Below are positions 20,480 to 31,934 of a DNA stretch of 32,000 nucleotides, piece by piece. The translations under genes were made by a program, and so were the position numbers. Source of the DNA: Trichodesmium erythraeum IMS101 (GTDB lineage: Bacteria > Cyanobacteriota > Cyanobacteriia > Cyanobacteriales > Microcoleaceae); the NCBI RefSeq assembly GCF_000014265.1, contig NC_008312.1, positions 1,110,001 through 1,142,000 on the forward strand. The letters are read 5' to 3'. The first letter of the stretch is position 1, and each line of letters begins with the position of its first letter. The notes under the pieces were generated by a model. It was not told where the DNA came from. It saw only the letters and a list, made by a program, of their open reading frames with translations, and did no database searches.

Positions 20480-20507
20480 TGATGATTAAATTTAATTCTC
20501 AAAGACA

Positions 20508-21227
20508 ATGATTAAAAAAGCACTTGTAACGGGTTCAGCAGTTGGAATAGGTAGGGCGATCGCTCTCGACTTAGCTAGGAAAGGATTTGATGTAGCATTT
20601 CACTATAACCGAAGTGCAGAAGCAGCCAACCAAGGAAGTCAAGAAGCAGCTACCTACGGAGTCAAGTCTATTGCTCTACAAGCAGATGTTACTAAACCAG
20701 AGCAAGCTAAATCTTTAGTAGAAAATGCAGCCGAAAAACTCGGAGGGTTATCTGTTGTAGTTAATAATGTGGGAAACTTTCTGGAAAAAACAACTAGTCA
20801 AATATCCATAGAAGAATGGGATGAAATGCTTGATTCAAATTTAAATTCCACTTTCTATGTCACTCAAACAACAATTCCTTACCTCAAGGCAGCAGGTTGG
20901 GGACGTATTGTCAACTTCAGTTTCGCAAGTGCCCAACATCTAAAAGCAGATGACCAACAAACAGCCTATAGAATTGCCAAAACTGGTATAATCATCTATA
21001 GTAAGTCCCTAGCTCAAGAATTAGTTAAGGATAAAATTACAGTAAATGTAGTTGCCCCAGGAGCAGCAGAAAATACTATTGGTCTGGAGGAAACTATTCC
21101 TCTGCTCCCAACTAAGCGACCTGCAACTTTGAAAGAAGTAACTCATGCAGTTGCTTTTTTTGTCAGTCCTGAGTCAGATTACATTACTGGGCAAGTTCTG
21201 GAAGTAGCAGGGGGTTACAGGTTGTAG
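20508..21227 (+). CDS. SDR-family NAD(P)-dependent oxidoreductase, copy 1 (possibly pteridine-reductase-like)
   Basis: 239-aa ORF with TGSAVGIGRA (TGxxxGxG), NNVGN and the YRIAK (YxxxK) catalytic motif. Confidence 0.88.
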   Translation: MIKKALVTGSAVGIGRAIALDLARKGFDVAFHYNRSAEAANQGSQEAATYGVKSIALQADVTKPEQAKSLVENAAEKLGGLSVVVNNVGNFLEKTTSQISIEEWDEMLDSNLNSTFYVTQTTIPYLKAAGWGRIVNFSFASAQHLKADDQQTAYRIAKTGIIIYSKSLAQELVKDKITVNVVAPGAAENTIGLEETIPLLPTKRPATLKEVTHAVAFFVSPESDYITGQVLEVAGGYRL

Positions 21228-22216: not shown

Positions 22217-22246
22217 TAGTTTAGATAGAACTTAATATTCAAGACA

Positions 22247-22966
22247 ATGCTAAAAAAAGCACTTGTGACAGGTTCAGGAGTGGGAATAGGTAGGGCGATC
22301 GCTCTTGACTTAGCTGAGAAAGGATTTGATGTAGCATTTCACTATAACCGGAATGCCGAGGCAGCTAACCAAGCAAGTCAAGAAGCAGCTACCTACGGAG
22401 TCAAATCTATTGCTCTACAAGCAGATGTGACTAGGCCAGAGTCAGCTCAATGTTTAGTAGAAAATGCAGCAGAAAAACTTGGAGGTTTATCAGTAGTAGT
22501 CAATAATGTGGGCAACTTTTTAGGAAGACCTACTAGCAAAATATCCATAGCAGAGTGGCAGGAAGTTATTGACTCTAACCTCAATTCCAATTTCTATGTT
22601 ACTACAGCAGCACTCCCCCATCTGAAAGCAGCTAATGGGGCACGAATAGTTAATTTTGCTTGCGCTCATGCTCAAAATGTGGTAGCACGAAAGACAAATA
22701 CGGCTTATGTAATTGCCAAAACAGGGATTATCATCTATAGTAAGTCTCTGGCTCAAGAGCTGATTAAAGACAAAATTACTGTTAATGTAGTATCTCCTGG
22801 AATAGCTGAGAATTCTTTTGACCTAGAAGAAATGATTCCTAAGTTACCTGCTAAACGTCCAGCAACTTTGCGAGAAATTAATCATGCAGTTTGGTTTTTT
22901 ATTAATCCTAATTCTGATTATATTACAGGACAAATTATAGAAGTATCTGGTGGTTGGAATTTATAG
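22247..22966 (+). CDS. SDR-family NAD(P)-dependent oxidoreductase, copy 2
   Basis: 239-aa ORF, collinear with copy 1. By my manual alignment it has 181 of 239 identical residues (~76%): 83 of 95 in the N-terminal part and about 68% in the remainder. Confidence 0.88.
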   Translation: MLKKALVTGSGVGIGRAIALDLAEKGFDVAFHYNRNAEAANQASQEAATYGVKSIALQADVTRPESAQCLVENAAEKLGGLSVVVNNVGNFLGRPTSKISIAEWQEVIDSNLNSNFYVTTAALPHLKAANGARIVNFACAHAQNVVARKTNTAYVIAKTGIIIYSKSLAQELIKDKITVNVVSPGIAENSFDLEEMIPKLPAKRPATLREINHAVWFFINPNSDYITGQIIEVSGGWNL

Positions 22967-28022: not shown

Positions 28023-28144
28023 AATAATTAAAGATTATTTGATTTAGGATAAGCAAATATTGGATATGATAATAAATTTATAAGTGGAACTCAAGGAATT
28101 CAAAATCAATATTAATGACAAATAATTCCTTGATTTTAATTGTT

Positions 28145-29647
28145 TTATCTTGAACGTTTAATTCCACCCTTGCGTTTAACTTCAAAACCATATCGATAAA
28201 TATCGGGGATATTAATTCTCCGATCTAAGCGAATTTCAACAATACCTAATTGTTCTAAGTATTGTAAAATTTCTTGGGGCTTTAATGAAGGTGGTTCTTG
28301 GTTCCATTTTGTGTTTTCTAGTAAGTTGAGAAATTTTTCTTCTTCAGTTAGAAGTGTTAAATCTTTAAGTTCTTTTCTTAAAGCTTCTAACCAGGGATAT
28401 TCTTCCTCTGTAAGTTCTTTGATTCGATCTTGAGAGGTATCCATTAAAGCTCCTTGTAAATCAGAAGGTTCTAATAAGCGATTTTCGGGCAATTCTTTTT
28501 CGTCAAATTTTTCTAATCTACGCTCTGCAGCCAAGGAGAATAACCTTAAAAAAGAACGAGGAGAAATGCTACGTTTTGCATCTTGAAGGTGATTAGAAAT
28601 CCAGTTATAAGTGTAGCCTTTGCGAGGATTTTCTCCCATAAATACCCCAACTATTTTTTCCATTAATAATTCAAAACGAGATTCATCTGATGTAGGTAAT
28701 ATACCTAGGATGTTATCTCTTTTTAAAGTTGAAGGAATTAAATCAGGAACTATTTTTAAATAATCATTCATTTCTTCTCCAGAGTTAGCTAAACGCTTTA
28801 CCAATAACTGATATAACAATGGAGTTTTCCACTCTAAAGTAATTTGATGTCCCCTGAGTTTAGAAGCATCTGGAAATCCTAAAAAATCGTGTTGAAATAA
28901 GTCTGTGCGTAGAAATATTTTGGGTCTAATTCGTTCCCAACGACGCCATCTATCTAGCCAAAATGCTAATAGTTCGGCGATGGGAGCCCGCAGTTTTAAA
29001 TAAGAAGGAACAATTCGATCTAGTTCATCATAAGTGATAAATAACCAGCGATCGTCTGCCAATAATTCTTCATCTAATTTATCTAAAGCATAGTTGATAC
29101 TTTCAAAGTTCTGGCGAGCATCTGGAAACCAGCCGGAAAGTAATGATAATTTGTTAGTTAAACAACCACGAATGTCCTCTGGTATTTCCTGAGCCCAATT
29201 GTGATTTGATAATTCTTTTTCTTGTTGAAATATTACTCCTAATACCAATCCGATCCAAAAAATACGCCAATCACTTCTATCCTTGTCTTTCATGTAGTTT
29301 TCTGTTACATCTGGTGTAGGAAATTTTTTTTCCCTAGTCTTAGTACGACCATATCCAGCAATCCAAATTGTTTTTTCTAAAGGGGGTAAGCGTTTAATTG
29401 TTAAGTTTTTTACTAAGGCTTTGCGACCATTAGGACTTCCTAGTAAACGAAAAAATTCTGTTTTACCAACACCTCTGCCACCTAATATTAAAAATGTATC
29501 AGTGTCCAATGTCTTACGGTAGCGATCTACAGGTAAAAAGTTTTTTAGAAATAAATTTTCATTATCACTTTCATGTTCAGCTATACCTTTTCCTGGTGTA
29601 ACATTAGCCATAATTTCTAATAGCTTTTTTTTATCAAAGTTAGTCAT
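28145..29647 (-). CDS. P-loop NTPase (Walker A/B ATPase) with a basic, possibly winged-helix C-terminal tail
   Basis: 500-aa ORF with Walker A LILGGRGVGKTEFF and Walker B-like WLFITYDELDRI. The C-terminus is ILQYLEQLGIVEIRLDRRINIPDIYRYGFEVKRKGG. Its start lies 8 nt after the upstream gene's stop, and the spacer contains AGGA. Confidence 0.8.
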   Translation of the reverse strand: MTNFDKKKLLEIMANVTPGKGIAEHESDNENLFLKNFLPVDRYRKTLDTDTFLILGGRGVGKTEFFRLLGSPNGRKALVKNLTIKRLPPLEKTIWIAGYGRTKTREKKFPTPDVTENYMKDKDRSDWRIFWIGLVLGVIFQQEKELSNHNWAQEIPEDIRGCLTNKLSLLSGWFPDARQNFESINYALDKLDEELLADDRWLFITYDELDRIVPSYLKLRAPIAELLAFWLDRWRRWERIRPKIFLRTDLFQHDFLGFPDASKLRGHQITLEWKTPLLYQLLVKRLANSGEEMNDYLKIVPDLIPSTLKRDNILGILPTSDESRFELLMEKIVGVFMGENPRKGYTYNWISNHLQDAKRSISPRSFLRLFSLAAERRLEKFDEKELPENRLLEPSDLQGALMDTSQDRIKELTEEEYPWLEALRKELKDLTLLTEEEKFLNLLENTKWNQEPPSLKPQEILQYLEQLGIVEIRLDRRINIPDIYRYGFEVKRKGGIKRSR

Positions 29648-29655
29648 TTTCCTAC

Positions 29656-31056
29656 CTAATTTTTCAGGTTCAATTTACGGTTAAAAAGACGGCACAGTCT
29701 TTCTGCCAGTCGTTGATAAGGTTTACCTGTTAAAATATCAATAATATTTAACAAAGAACTATCTTCTTCAACAGCAGAATATTCAAATAAATTTATTTCT
29801 CTACGCAATTCACTTTGCCAGTCTATAACTATTGGGTAAAAACGATCTTCTTGACCATTGGAGTTAGGAACATCTTCGCTAGAGCTATAGTAATGATCTT
29901 GAAAAACACTATAAGCGTCCTCTCGAAATTTTCTCAGCTCCTGCTCTCTTCCTGGTACACCTATTCCTGGAGCTAGAGCATGGATGAGTAACAGTGGCAA
30001 AGCTTCGGGAGCTAAAGGTTTTGCTAGACGACGAATAACTTGAGTTAGTCCTGCCCAACTTTGACGAGATTGAGTGCCAAAAATGACTGCTGCATGGGAG
30101 AATTCAGCGATCGCTAATCCTCCAAGATCGTGAAAACCTGTTCTGGTATCAAGTAAAATAAAATCTAGTTTCCCTGCTGCTTCATTCAGTTCTTTGAACT
30201 TATCAGACGCTGCTTCATTCAGTTCTTTGAACATATCAGACCAAGTTTTTTCCAGTGGGTTATTGACATTGAGCAAATTCTGGCAATCAAGTCTTGCCAA
30301 CTTTTCCAGATAGTTATTATCCACATTTCCTGCACTCAGTATAGGTAAAATTCTGTCTTCATCTCCTAATAAATTTTCATCCTTGAATGATTCTAAATGA
30401 TCCTTAAGTTCCCAATTCTTACCTTGGATATTTTTCTCTAACAAATAATCAATTATCCCTGGAAGACTCTTCTCTCGATCTGGGAAGAAAAAAGTGAATA
30501 TACCAGGAGATTCTAAATCTAAATCGACTACAGCTACTTGATGACCGTGACGAGCTAATGTCAGAGCTGTTGCAACTAATGTTGTTGTGCGACCAACTCC
30601 ACCTTTGAAGGAAAAAAACGAAACTATTGCTGGTTTATGACCTTGATCTACTACTTTCTGAGGCCAAGGAGGCTCAGTTTCTTTTTTATTTGTCCATGCT
30701 TGTTTAGCAACATGACGCTCTAACACATACCAACGAGGTTGACTTTCATCATCCCATTCAGCGGAAACTCTTTCCGAGCGGATCACATCTATCAAATTTT
30801 TATAACCATCTTTTTCTCCTTGTGGTAGCCAAATATCGTGGCCGTAGTAGGAAACGAGTTTATTCTCAAGGCGTTCTTCTAAGTGATTTAGAATAATATC
30901 TTCAAGATTTTTGTTTTCTAGAGGTTCCAGGAAAAGTCTAATCTTTCCCTGCACATCGCGAATTATAGTTATTGATTCTAGTTGGTCTTTTATAGAAGAT
31001 TCTTCAAAGCATTCTTGCACTTTGTCAAATGTTTCACTGAAAGTAATATTAGTCAT
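29656..31056 (-). CDS. ParA/MinD-like ATPase with a variant deviant Walker A (KGGVGR) and an unknown ~140-aa N-terminal domain
   Basis: 466-aa ORF with IVSFFSFKGGVGRTTTLVATALTLARHGHQVAVVDLDLESPG and ILLDTRTGFHD. Its ATG (31054-31056) directly abuts the TAA of the upstream gene. A GAGGAG lies 7 nt upstream. Confidence 0.8.
   Translation of the reverse strand: MTNITFSETFDKVQECFEESSIKDQLESITIIRDVQGKIRLFLEPLENKNLEDIILNHLEERLENKLVSYYGHDIWLPQGEKDGYKNLIDVIRSERVSAEWDDESQPRWYVLERHVAKQAWTNKKETEPPWPQKVVDQGHKPAIVSFFSFKGGVGRTTTLVATALTLARHGHQVAVVDLDLESPGIFTFFFPDREKSLPGIIDYLLEKNIQGKNWELKDHLESFKDENLLGDEDRILPILSAGNVDNNYLEKLARLDCQNLLNVNNPLEKTWSDMFKELNEAASDKFKELNEAAGKLDFILLDTRTGFHDLGGLAIAEFSHAAVIFGTQSRQSWAGLTQVIRRLAKPLAPEALPLLLIHALAPGIGVPGREQELRKFREDAYSVFQDHYYSSSEDVPNSNGQEDRFYPIVIDWQSELRREINLFEYSAVEEDSSLLNIIDILTGKPYQRLAERLCRLFNRKLNLKN
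30176..30241. repeat. 33-bp tandem duplication inside the ParA-like gene (in frame, 11 aa)
   Basis: 30176-30208 and 30209-30241 differ at one position (30199 t versus 30232 a). The protein reads SDMFKELNEAASDKFKELNEAAG. Confidence 0.9.
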
Positions 31057-31581
31057 TTAAAGCTCCTCACTAGATATCCTACCATCCAAAATTAGTTTGG
31101 GAATAATTTCGTTATAGATTTCTGCTGCTCGTTTAACTGCTTCTTTTGCCTTGAATTCCTTGCACCAACCAGACTGAAAATAACGTCGCTCTGGATGATA
31201 TTCAGCTAAAACTGTCCCTTTTATCCGGGAAATTGACAGTTGAGCATCAAGAATAGGATAAATTATCCGTAATCTTCCAATGCCTTTACCTTGAAGTTGT
31301 CTTAAATTGTGACCGAATTTTTGACAAGCTTTATTGTTAATATATTGCTCTACTATAACTTTAAGAGTACATTCTACCACATAGCCTGCCAAGTAAACTG
31401 CATTATCCCAACGATGTTGAGCTAGCATAATTTCTGCATCATATAAATGCCTTCCAGCAGCTTGGATAAATGACTCTTTAAAATGACTCTTAAATGACTC
31501 TTTGATAGATGAATCTTTTGAATCTTTTGAATCTTTTGACTCTTTTGACTCTTTTGACTCTTTGATAGATGAATCTTTCAT
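31057..31581 (-). CDS. HEPN-domain protein with a low-complexity K/E/D/S-rich N-terminus
   Basis: 174-aa ORF. AAGRHLYDAEIMLAQHRWDNAVYLAGYVVECTLKVIV...FGHNLRQL...YHPERRYF matches the helical HEPN pattern (A..L...g.y..a..la.qa.E..lK ... tHdL..L ... RYp). The N-terminus is MKDSSIKESKESKESKDSKDSKDSSIKES. Confidence 0.65.
   Translation of the reverse strand: MKDSSIKESKESKESKDSKDSKDSSIKESFKSHFKESFIQAAGRHLYDAEIMLAQHRWDNAVYLAGYVVECTLKVIVEQYINNKACQKFGHNLRQLQGKGIGRLRIIYPILDAQLSISRIKGTVLAEYHPERRYFQSGWCKEFKAKEAVKRAAEIYNEIIPKLILDGRISSEEL
31511..31564. repeat. six tandem 9-bp units (gaatctttt x3, gactctttt x2, gactctttg) encoding the KES/KDS repeats
   Basis: Read directly from the sequence. The array is flanked by a 23-bp direct repeat gactctttgatagatgaatcttt at 31496-31518 and 31556-31578. 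Confidence 0.9.
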
Positions 31582-31613: not shown

Positions 31614-31934
31614 TTAAAAAATATTCTCATCTGGAACTTCTTTATTTGTATAATAAGCTGTCGCTTTCTTGGCCGCAATTTCTACTGGGACATCTTCTGG
31701 CACCAACTGATCACGAATAGGCACTCGCTCCACTATTTTAATACCAGAGTTAATAATAGGGCTATATTTGATATCACTCATCGACACTAAACCCTCAATA
31801 TTACTCATGCCTAAGCAATGAAAAACATCAGCCATTAATTCCCGAAACCGCATATTTTGTAATCCTACTACACATTCAGTCCCAGGAAAATTATGATTTA
31901 TATGGTAGTATAATATAAATCTAACTATTAGTAT
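31614..31934 (-). pseudogene. C-terminal fragment of a GTP cyclohydrolase II (RibA-family)-like gene
   Basis: RFRELMADVFHCLGMSNIEGLVSMSDIKYSPIINSGIKIVERVPI aligns with the E. coli RibA C-terminus [46 protein letters not shown]. The open frame is bounded upstream by a stop at 31935-31937, so the catalytic N-terminal ~130 aa are missing. Confidence 0.6.

Follow-up and report, generated by a model that had tools for sequence, protein, structure and literature searches.

A catalogued three-gene cassette in Trichodesmium erythraeum IMS101

We analysed a stretch of 32,000 nucleotides (nt) of Trichodesmium erythraeum IMS101 (NC_008312.1, positions 1,110,001 to 1,142,000), hereafter the window, whose minus strand holds three co-oriented open reading frames (ORFs) at positions 28145–31581. 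By exact look-up these genes, called A, B and C below, are Tery_0704, Tery_0703 and Tery_0702 of this strain. Gene A (31057–31581, minus strand; 174 amino acids (aa); WP_011610531, HEPN domain-containing protein) encodes a putative ribonuclease (RNase) effector with a predicted AF0298/AbiV-like HEPN fold. Gene B (29656–31056, minus strand; 466 aa; WP_011610530, AAA family ATPase) joins an N-terminal domain of ~140 aa to a ParA/MinD-like (SIMIBI) ATPase with a variant of the deviant Walker A motif, and gene C (28145–29647, minus strand; 500 aa; WP_011610529, hypothetical protein) encodes an Sll1717-family AAA+ ATPase, a putative sensor or switch. The TAA stop codon of A touches the ATG start codon of B in TAAATG (31054–31059, minus strand) with GAGGAG just upstream, an arrangement consistent with translational coupling, and B and C are separated by 8 nt (GTAGGAAA; 29648–29655, minus strand) that contain AGGA, a Shine-Dalgarno-like element. 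An earlier note on this DNA, made from the sequence alone, had described three tightly coupled genes on one strand, and the ORFs and junctions were exactly as it gave them; the motifs that it quoted (KGGVGRT, GGRGVGKT, ITYDELD, ECTLKVIV, GHNLRQL and ERRYF) were likewise all found in the translations.

The trio had been proposed there as an undescribed conflict system, which it is not, since all three proteins match the models of the candidate system PDC-M28 in PADLOC-DB v2. PDC-M28C matched aa 26–498 of the 500 aa of C (7.5e-80), PDC-M28B matched aa 1–418 of the 466 aa of B (1.8e-61), and the match of PDC-M28A to A was partial, with only aa 36–83 aligned (1.9e-11). The two NCBIfam names that the earlier note had suggested, KGGVGR-motif variant AAA ATPase for B and Sll1717-family P-loop ATPase for C, were both correct and both above cutoff: NF047398 (AAA_KGGVGR) matched aa 142–344 of B with 167.8 bits (cutoff 90), and NF047389 (ATPase_Sll1717) matched aa 21–489 of C with 105.1 bits (cutoff 75). 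Because of these matches to the three PDC-M28 models and to the curated families for B and C, the trio is to be regarded as catalogued.

PDC-M28 is one of 145 ‘phage defence candidates’ (PDCs) obtained from cassettes embedded in BREX, DISARM and type I restriction–modification (R-M) systems (Payne, Hughes, Fineran, Jackson 2024; bioRxiv 10.1101/2024.01.29.577857). In the supplementary table of that study it is listed as cassette CAS_00115, FAM_01482>>FAM_02546>>FAM_01036, and it was absent from the candidates tested in that study and in one later study. The Trichodesmium genes have the PDC-M28 layout, lying side by side on one strand as A>>B>>C, and the families are the same three, without any difference in kind. 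In this copy, A has in addition an N-terminal tail that is encoded by repeats, and B a duplication of 11 aa. The trio is a typical member of PDC-M28, a catalogued and functionally uncharacterised candidate. The earlier note had allowed that identity with an already named system would speak against its proposal, and the trio does bear a name, but the name is that of a purely computational candidate.

Conservation and spread of the trio

We scanned one genome per GTDB species (~185,000 species genomes) with one peptide pattern, built on a 17-sequence alignment of C as a 62-sequence diverse C alignment was too divergent, and found 116 loci, a number that is a lower bound. Eighty of these loci (designated L with a number below) were retrieved and their ORFs were searched by hidden Markov models. 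Among the 69 loci with enough upstream sequence, 63 had A, B and C in this order on one strand, with all genes at full length in 52 of the 63. The A–B gap was 20 nt or less in 51/55 loci and the B–C gap in 54/55, many of the genes overlapping by 4 nt. Such an arrangement is far beyond chance and identifies the trio as one conserved module; the possibility raised in the earlier note, that homologues of B and C might not lie together or beside a HEPN gene elsewhere, was not borne out.

The spread of the module was patchy and covered Cyanobacteria, Bacillota, Planctomycetota, Acidobacteriota, Chloroflexota, Verrucomicrobiota, Poribacteria and Proteobacteria (at least seven phyla, plus proteobacterial plasmids). 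Cyanobacterial hosts were Trichodesmium, Okeania, Hormoscilla, Microcoleus, Microcystis, Nostocales, Pseudanabaena and others, and further hosts included Lachnospiraceae, Oscillospiraceae, Heliophilum, Tumebacillus, Phycisphaerales, Acidobacteriota, Anaerolineae, Chthoniobacterales and Poribacteria. Relatives of C with 24–30% identity were also present on plasmids of Enterobacter (IncF), Paraburkholderia, Burkholderia, Ralstonia, Streptomyces and others; the copy of Enterobacter bugandensis is on pSurvcare220 (NZ_CP039454.1:137389-140719). In the plasmid copies that we inspected, the C homologue was accompanied by a KGGVGRS ATPase and a small A-like protein (hmmsearch E = 1e-8 to 1e-15), all encoded with overlapping stops and starts and adjoining integrases, transposases and toxin–antitoxin (TA) genes. 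From these sequence relationships it is evident that the cassette has been horizontally transferred, including between Cyanobacteria, Firmicutes and Proteobacteria. At the DNA level no carriers were found in E. coli. A phage-borne origin was considered and dropped, as there were no matches in INPHARED phage records or IMG/VR contigs.

Several copies lie within or beside known defence genes, as the founding examples of PDC-M28 are embedded in known systems. In one locus (L078) a BREX type 2 system has the trio between its PglW and PglX, in another the trio lies beside HmaC and HmaA on a Calothrix plasmid (L020) and in a third beside a Leo-like dynamin (L045). Among the 126 immediate flanking proteins of 32 loci, some matched models of Shedu, CBASS effectors, Menshen, RmrA and type IIG R-M; most were ordinary metabolic or transport genes, and the defence context is a description of individual loci.

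B and C are also found joined in one protein of ~900 aa, in at least five clusters at 50% identity and additionally in L028 and on a Nostoc plasmid, where the fusion adjoins hsdR. The existence of such fusions argues strongly for a physical interaction of B and C. In L028, an Oscillatoriales metagenome-assembled genome (MAG), a divergent 152-aa A-like gene (hhalign probability 73%) is followed by an 896-aa B–C fusion (L028:13653-16812), and this two-gene version sits 2.1 kb downstream of a canonical trio. In the MAG of an uncultured bacterium, C is immediately preceded by an apparent A-like gene (106 aa; hmmsearch E = 1e-6), and B is missing both from between them and from the vicinity (L085:2515-4320), which may be a two-component variant or a deletion.

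Pseudogenised copies were frequent among the scanned loci. In the isolate Calothrix sp. NIES-4105, GATTTAGAT of L020 is replaced by GATGCGCGAT (L021:9150-9170), and B is thereby frameshifted inside its Walker A’ region VDLDLE. In the same genome A keeps every key residue and C is intact.

Gene A encodes a predicted HEPN variant

The Pfam HEPN family PF05168 matched A with 19.8 bits (E = 9e-4), below its gathering score of 22; among the orthologues of A, the Poribacteria copy reached 27.3 bits and many others have precomputed matches. A sequence-only search of the PDB with the A family profile gave no HEPN match, and the fold assignment therefore rests on an AlphaFold2 (AF2) model and its Foldseek matches. 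In the model, built with 34 homologues, the core (aa 36–170) had a predicted local distance difference test (pLDDT) score above 90. The top ranks of Foldseek against the PDB were HEPN proteins, namely ST0689 (1wol), AF0298 (2hsb), TM0613 (1o3u), SsR10 (2q00), 4nqf and TT1696 (1ufb), and HEPN matches also included AbiV (9bj6/9bj7) and sacsin; the first eight matches had probabilities of 0.95–1.0 and template modelling (TM) scores, by target, of 0.5–0.64. With the structural matches and the Pfam matches of its orthologues, A is best described as a four-helix up-down HEPN fold of the HEPN-T/AbiV-like (AF0298 type) variant, in line with the HEPN assignment of the earlier note.

The canonical HEPN motif Rx4-6H is absent from both A and its family consensus. 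In 62 distinct orthologues that represent several phyla, R44, H45, E70, C71, K74, H91, H129, P130, R133 and Y134 were nearly invariant; helix 2 holds E70, the helix 2–3 insert holds H91, and the last four lie in the segment H129-P-x-R-R-Y134. AF0298-like HEPN-T proteins and AbiV lack the motif histidine and keep the basic residue (Anantharaman et al. 2013, PMC3710099), and an alternative conserved histidine from the helix 2–3 insert may rebuild the active site (PMC3710099). The conservation pattern of A (H91 and R132/R133-Y134) fits this proposed alternative site. The reference in the earlier note to HEPN RNases such as Cas13 and Csm6 does not carry over to catalysis: without Rx4-6H, A is not directly comparable with Cas13/Csm6-type enzymes.

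AbiV itself has been reported as an rRNA-degrading RNase (PMC13064643) used in abortive infection. It is further reported to be the toxin of a type III TA system, paired with an RNA antitoxin and triggered by the phage protein SaV. A resembles AF0298 and AbiV in fold (2hsb, 9bj6/9bj7) and in the kind of motif variation, at an identity of only 11–18%, and differs from AbiV in its partners, which are two ATPases in place of an RNA antitoxin; no RNA gene was found here. An MNT nucleotidyltransferase partner of A was likewise not found in the NCBIfam, Pfam and PADLOC searches.

The first 33 aa of A form a low-complexity tail that is predicted to be disordered (pLDDT <50) and is encoded by tandem repeats at 31467–31563 on the minus strand, with a 9-bp unit repeated six times and a ~12-bp unit repeated three times. 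The K/E/D/S-rich tail remarked on in the earlier note is thus present, but it is a lineage-specific product of tandem repeats that most homologues, which are 141–143 aa long, do not have. Its length is polymorphic, with A proteins of 136–174 aa among Trichodesmium genomes, and the repeats behave like an in-frame coding microsatellite. We rejected them as a candidate type III TA RNA antitoxin, as they are 9–12 bp long, lie inside the ORF, are absent in most homologues and have no Rfam match.

Gene B encodes a KGGxGR ParA/MinD-like ATPase

The region of B from aa 142 to 344 is a ParA/MinD/Mrp-like SIMIBI NTPase with Pfam matches to AAA_31, CbiA and ParA, and its PDB profile matches were ParA, MinD, Mrp and ArsA proteins, confined to the P-loop region. 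The motif KGGVGRT (aa 151–157; 30586–30606, minus strand) retains the signature lysine and carries arginine in place of the P-loop lysine. This substitution is a family trait, as K151, G152, G153, G155 and R156 (K-G-G-x-G-R) were invariant in 65/65 B sequences, and KGG[VL]GR[TS] is also found in the B–C fusions and the proteobacterial plasmid homologues. The canonical pattern KGGxGK[ST] with both lysines is thus not present in B, which we class as a variant rather than a canonical ParA/MinD protein because the P-loop lysine is R156 in all 65 sequences. In agreement, no equivalog-level match to ParA, MinD, Mrp or ArsA was obtained (15–31 bits against cutoffs of 135–650, in the P-loop region only). 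The other nucleotide-binding residues are retained: D178 and D180 of Walker A’ and D303 of Walker B were invariant in 65/65 and D298 was present in 62/65.

From what is known of ParA and MinD, these residues are in keeping with a sandwich dimer that depends on nucleotide and hydrolyses it slowly or not at all. By this analogy the residues of B suggest an ATP-sandwich dimer that recruits a partner, an idea that resembles the ATPase switch and recruited effector of MinD–MinC. With the MinD–MinC–MinE and ParABS systems B has in common the signature lysine, the Walker A’ aspartate pair and the Walker B aspartate, and it differs from them in its arginine P-loop, its ~140-aa N-terminal domain, the lack of ParB, MinE and a centromere, and its sporadic, mobile distribution. 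MinD/ParA-like domains in other conflict systems of multicellular bacteria are predicted to be inactive (Kaur et al. 2020, PMC7159879). The N-terminal ~140 aa of B had no Pfam, NCBIfam or PDB sequence matches and contain the invariant residues R33, D34, E113, R114, K118, W121 and W131. The description of B in the earlier note, a KGGVGR-variant ParA/MinD-like ATPase with an extra N-terminal domain, agrees with all of these results.

A 33-bp sequence is tandemly duplicated at 30176–30241 (minus strand) in B, producing an in-frame insert of 11 aa (FKELNEAA...). The duplication is found only in this copy of B, being absent in 24/24 aligned homologues, including that of another Trichodesmium lineage.

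An arrangement similar to A–B is the dyad of a MAE_18760-family HEPN protein and a ParA/Soj-like ATPase. Cyanobacteria are among its carriers, and a function in conflict or as a TA module has been predicted for it (Anantharaman et al. 2013, PMC3710099). In both cases a HEPN protein is encoded beside a SIMIBI ParA/Soj-like ATPase. The MAE_18760 HEPN proteins have the canonical Rx4-6H and various N-terminal fusions, whereas A is a small HEPN-T/AbiV-like protein without that motif; the trio moreover adds a third, obligatory ORC/STAND-like ATPase.

The dyads offer a precedent for an ATPase in the place of the MNT antitoxin (PMC3710099) and so for reading the trio as a TA or addiction module, in which A would be a constitutively active HEPN toxin, B its protein antitoxin and C an accessory regulator, and the main function would lie in stabilising plasmids or genomic islands and not in phage sensing. 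The apparent translational coupling of A and B, the plasmid copies beside integrases, transposases and other TA pairs, and the action of an AbiV-type HEPN as a TA toxin are all in keeping with this. A two-part TA, however, does not explain C, whose conservation and linkage are as strict as those of B, with which it often forms a fusion, and the disruption of B beside an intact A, clearest in Calothrix NIES-4105, would be expected to be lethal in a classical TA pair; the A family also differs from the Rx4-6H-bearing MAE_18760 HEPN of the precedent. We consider a TA module unlikely as the account of the trio, and note that TA and abortive-infection defence roles are not mutually exclusive.

Gene C encodes a predicted ORC/Cdc6-STAND-type ATPase

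The AF2 model of C had a pLDDT of 82.9 and a predicted TM-score of 0.84. Its Foldseek matches included BrxC (9zdx/9zll; 2.9e-5), the archaeal Walker ATPase PAB2304 (2qen; 3.3e-5), archaeal ORC2 (4e-4) and CED-4 (5e-3) as well as archaeal ORC1, and Pfam gave weak matches to ORC-CDC6-like, AAA_16, ATPase_2 and nSTAND3 in C or its relatives, where a sequence-only PDB profile search returned P-loop matches only. On the basis of the structural matches to BrxC, PAB2304, ORC1/ORC2 and CED-4, C is predicted to be an ORC/Cdc6-STAND-type AAA+ ATPase with an AAA+ core, a helical lid and a winged helix, a clade assignment that is approximate because the TM-scores were low (0.3–0.5). The nucleotide-binding motifs are intact, as the earlier note had stated in describing C as a large P-loop ATPase. 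Walker A is GGRGVGKT (aa 56–63; 29459–29482, minus strand), with G61 and K62 in 71/71 and G56 and G59 in 70/71 sequences, and the Walker B region is FITYDELD (aa 203–210, with ITYDELD at aa 204–210; 29018–29041, minus strand), with D207 and D210 in 71/71.

The C-terminal region of C (aa ~430–500; 28148–28360, minus strand) consists of helices and short strands and ends in a basic tail, KRKGGIKRSR. The tail has the consensus ...YGFxVKRKGGxKR, in which Y484, G487, F488 and R492 were present in 71/71 and G494 and G495 in 70/71 sequences. ORC/Cdc6-type structures end in a winged helix and aligned over most of the length of C in Foldseek; from the model, we infer a winged-helix-like C-terminus with a putative role in DNA or RNA binding.

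The C family is large, with 1187 clusters at 50% identity (E ≤ 1e-3). Longer relatives combine the NTPase with C-terminal TPR repeats, and others carry a protein kinase, a kinase and an SF1 helicase, or DHHA1. Because these relatives show the classic STAND NTPase–TPR layout or kinase, helicase or DHHA1 modules, their domain layouts support by analogy a sensor or switch role for the C module. An Okeania locus (L012:10001-11983; Okeania sp. SIO3B5) has a trio that is canonical but for its C, which C-terminal TPR repeats lengthen to 660 aa. The AAA+ core of C, of the ORC/Cdc6-STAND type, is common to BrxC, HmaC/DUF499, Avs/NLR-like proteins and CED-4. C is not an orthologue of BrxC or Avs, given the TM-scores of 0.3–0.5 and the fact that PDC-M28C was the only PADLOC model to match. 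From the STAND immune ATPases it differs in being short (500 aa), with neither a repeat sensor domain nor a fused effector, the effector A and the extra ParA-like ATPase B being encoded separately.

Genomic neighbourhood in the window

The neighbours of the trio in the window are housekeeping genes, namely fbp, tal, zwf, opcA, folB, HPPK, panD, pterin genes and a gene for an EgtD-like methyltransferase, and proximity of this copy to a defence island, which the earlier note had suggested examining, was not found. Its description of the surrounding 20 kb as decaying was overstated: many neighbours are intact housekeeping genes, and ORFs of 80 aa or more take up ~54% of the window beyond the trio, while one clear remnant does lie directly upstream of A. 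This is a 79-aa ORF on the minus strand (31614–31853) that corresponds to the C-terminus of GTP cyclohydrolase II (NF005536 positions 331–407 of 419). Because Okeania has a full-length 415-aa ORF at the same position (L011:6939-8186), with a C-terminus closely similar to the remnant, the gene appears by sequence comparison to have been truncated in T. erythraeum.

The metabolic setting of the Trichodesmium and Okeania operons would suit a housekeeping module, in which B would be a positioning ATPase and C an ORC-like DNA-binding ATPase in partition, replication control or positioning, and A a non-catalytic HEPN adaptor or RNA-binding subunit. Membership of B in the ParA/MinD/Mrp superfamily, the resemblance of C to ORC/Cdc6 initiators and the lack of the canonical catalytic motif in A are all compatible with such a function. 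A lysine-to-arginine change in the P-loop is nevertheless atypical for working partition ATPases, and relatives of C carry fused TPR, kinase and helicase modules, as immune STAND NTPases do. We consider a role in partition or replication improbable because of the sporadic, mobile spread (116 hits, as a lower bound, in ~185,000 species genomes, with transfer between Cyanobacteria, Firmicutes and Proteobacteria), the copies inside a BREX operon and beside Hma, the frequent pseudogenisation that is tolerated, and the absence of ParB and centromere-like repeats nearby. A partition system in the strict sense was rejected on the same grounds, there being no centromere-like or inverted repeats, no ParB and a sporadic mobile distribution.

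Other features of the window were as follows. A hairpin with a 10-bp stem lies 13 nt past the stop codon of C (28091–28132, minus strand; -15.2 kcal/mol, z = -3.6 versus shuffles); it may mark the 3’ end of the operon or transcription unit, or act as a stabiliser. It has no U-tract, and a consensus terminator scan found none; the promoter consensus scan was uninformative. There are 14 copies of the octamer HIP1 (GCGATCGC) in the window, where chance alone would give 0.02. The single copy in B that the earlier note had taken as a sign of long residence in cyanobacteria is present (30107–30114), but one site in 3.4 kb says little on the residence time of the operon. A short-chain dehydrogenase and pterin-binding gene pair is tandemly duplicated at 20492–21216 and 22232–22955, the copies being 78% identical in DNA. 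The 32-kb window contains no tRNA genes and no Rfam matches.

Selection in Trichodesmium

We measured the ratio of nonsynonymous to synonymous substitution rates (dN/dS) for each gene of the trio. Against Hormoscilla, dN/dS was 0.17 for A, 0.17 for B and 0.15 for C, and against Okeania it was 0.25–0.42, 0.31–0.34 and 0.30–0.37, respectively, where housekeeping controls gave 0.10–0.24. Against another Trichodesmium lineage, MAG_R02 (L007), the values rose to 0.49 for A, 0.97 for B and 1.33 for C, whereas the EgtD-like gene next to the trio gave 0.147. The synonymous rate dS in the same comparison was 0.06 for B and 0.02 for C, and ~0.155–0.156 for A and the EgtD-like gene. The low dS of B and C together with their dN/dS of about 1 could reflect recent recombination or transfer of B–C between lineages combined with fast protein evolution.

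The conserved core of the proteins was untouched by these changes. The window proteins retain all residues that are conserved across phyla (65 positions in B and 86 in C), and the differences from the other Trichodesmium lineage fell on none of these sites (0/65 in B with 7.3 expected and 0/86 in C with 5.5 expected). All indels are in frame, and the probability that the ORFs would have stayed free of stops under random substitution at the observed divergence was 0.10 for A, 0.02 for B and 0.06 for C. The earlier note had argued that the genes are intact and hence selected. This stands for the conserved sites and the reading frames, which have been kept, but not for the overall rates, which are near 1 for B and C against 0.15 in the adjacent gene. 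From these sequence comparisons, a core seems to be maintained while peripheral positions evolve fast, a pattern compatible with diversifying selection as in immune genes, and perhaps with a partial relaxation.

The same rates could be expected of a decaying relic, a formerly functional trio now under neutral drift in T. erythraeum whose frames are open by chance. Besides the dN/dS of 0.97 for B and 1.33 for C next to 0.147 for the EgtD-like gene, the repeat expansions in A and the 33-bp duplication in B, the gene remnant directly upstream and the low coding density of the genome would agree with decay. Under drift, however, the differences would not be expected to avoid all 65 and 86 conserved positions or the indels to keep the frame, and the joint probability of three stop-free ORFs is ~1e-4 (0.10 × 0.02 × 0.06); in addition, identical protein sequences recur across dozens of Trichodesmium assemblies, the Trichodesmium alleles forming clusters of 44 to 171 sequences. 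We give little credence to a relic.

Discussion

The trio is the Trichodesmium copy of a widespread mobile cassette that, in our view, probably works as a sensor–switch–effector system against phages or other mobile elements. A role in conflict or defence, as the earlier note had proposed, is the best reading of the locus, and it rests on the patchy spread over multiple phyla, the plasmid and integrase contexts, the embedding in BREX type 2 and the adjacency to Hma. We infer the defence function, the RNase activity, the identity of the sensing protein and the direction of regulation (activation, not antitoxin-like inhibition) as parts of one scheme. In it, the part of sensor or switch would fall to C, whose cue from the invader would probably be a nucleic acid or nucleoprotein. 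B would bind C directly and act as an adaptor by nucleotide-dependent dimerisation with slow or no hydrolysis; B and C together would switch A on, presumably by controlling its dimerisation, and the activated A would cleave RNA and arrest the infected cell. That A would be activated by B and C rather than held in check by an antitoxin is suggested by the intact A beside a frameshifted B in Calothrix NIES-4105.

A number of results weigh against this scheme. Regarding A, RNase activity is plausible by analogy but is an extrapolation, because Rx4-6H is lacking, the window copy scores below the Pfam gathering threshold and the Foldseek E-values are weak (0.04–2). The N-terminal domain of B matched no family, and with arginine for lysine in its P-loop, B may not hydrolyse ATP at all. 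The argument from the frameshifted B leans mainly on one isolate genome, the other split genes being in MAGs and possibly assembly errors. As to context, the window holds housekeeping neighbours and no defence island, and many other loci also lie among housekeeping genes. The lack of copies in phage records and viral contigs is neutral for defence and gives no clue to a trigger. Within Trichodesmium, B and C may owe their dN/dS of about 1 to relaxed constraint and not to diversifying selection. Finally, our literature search revealed no experimental test of PDC-M28 nor a published domain analysis or mechanism, and found no papers on PDC-M28, on KGGVGR in the present sense, on Sll1717, or on the Tery locus tags and WP accessions; a search for ParA, Soj, HEPN and conflict systems likewise gave nothing relevant.

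A more specific proposal, which we put forward only tentatively and hold to be possible rather than likely, is that the defence cassette represents a new kind of immune module, in which the STAND/ORC-like C signals through the arginine-substituted ParA/MinD switch B, which in turn assembles and activates A, a HEPN RNase without Rx4-6H. We could find no characterised counterpart for any of three traits, namely an arginine-substituted ParA/MinD-like protein fused or coupled to an ORC/STAND-like ATPase, a HEPN protein without Rx4-6H, and a B that is dispensable for viability. If this proposal were true, the trio would be the first defence system with a cytoskeletal or partition-type SIMIBI ATPase as the transducer between sensor and effector.

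If PDC-M28 does work in defence, it would add a KGGxGR ParA/MinD-like switch coupled to an ORC/STAND-like ATPase, a combination that is found in no characterised anti-phage system known to us, and A would be the second HEPN nuclease after AbiV to act without the canonical Rx4-6H. With the B–C fusions, the conserved residues, the tolerated loss of B and the STAND-like relatives of C, what was an anonymous database entry now yields hypotheses that can be tested. The carriers include the ecologically important bloom-forming and nitrogen-fixing Trichodesmium, Okeania, Microcystis, Dolichospermum and Nodularia, gut Lachnospiraceae, and plasmids of Enterobacter, Burkholderia and Ralstonia; as they span cyanobacterial blooms, the gut and plasmids, the function of the cassette bears on phage–host dynamics in several settings.

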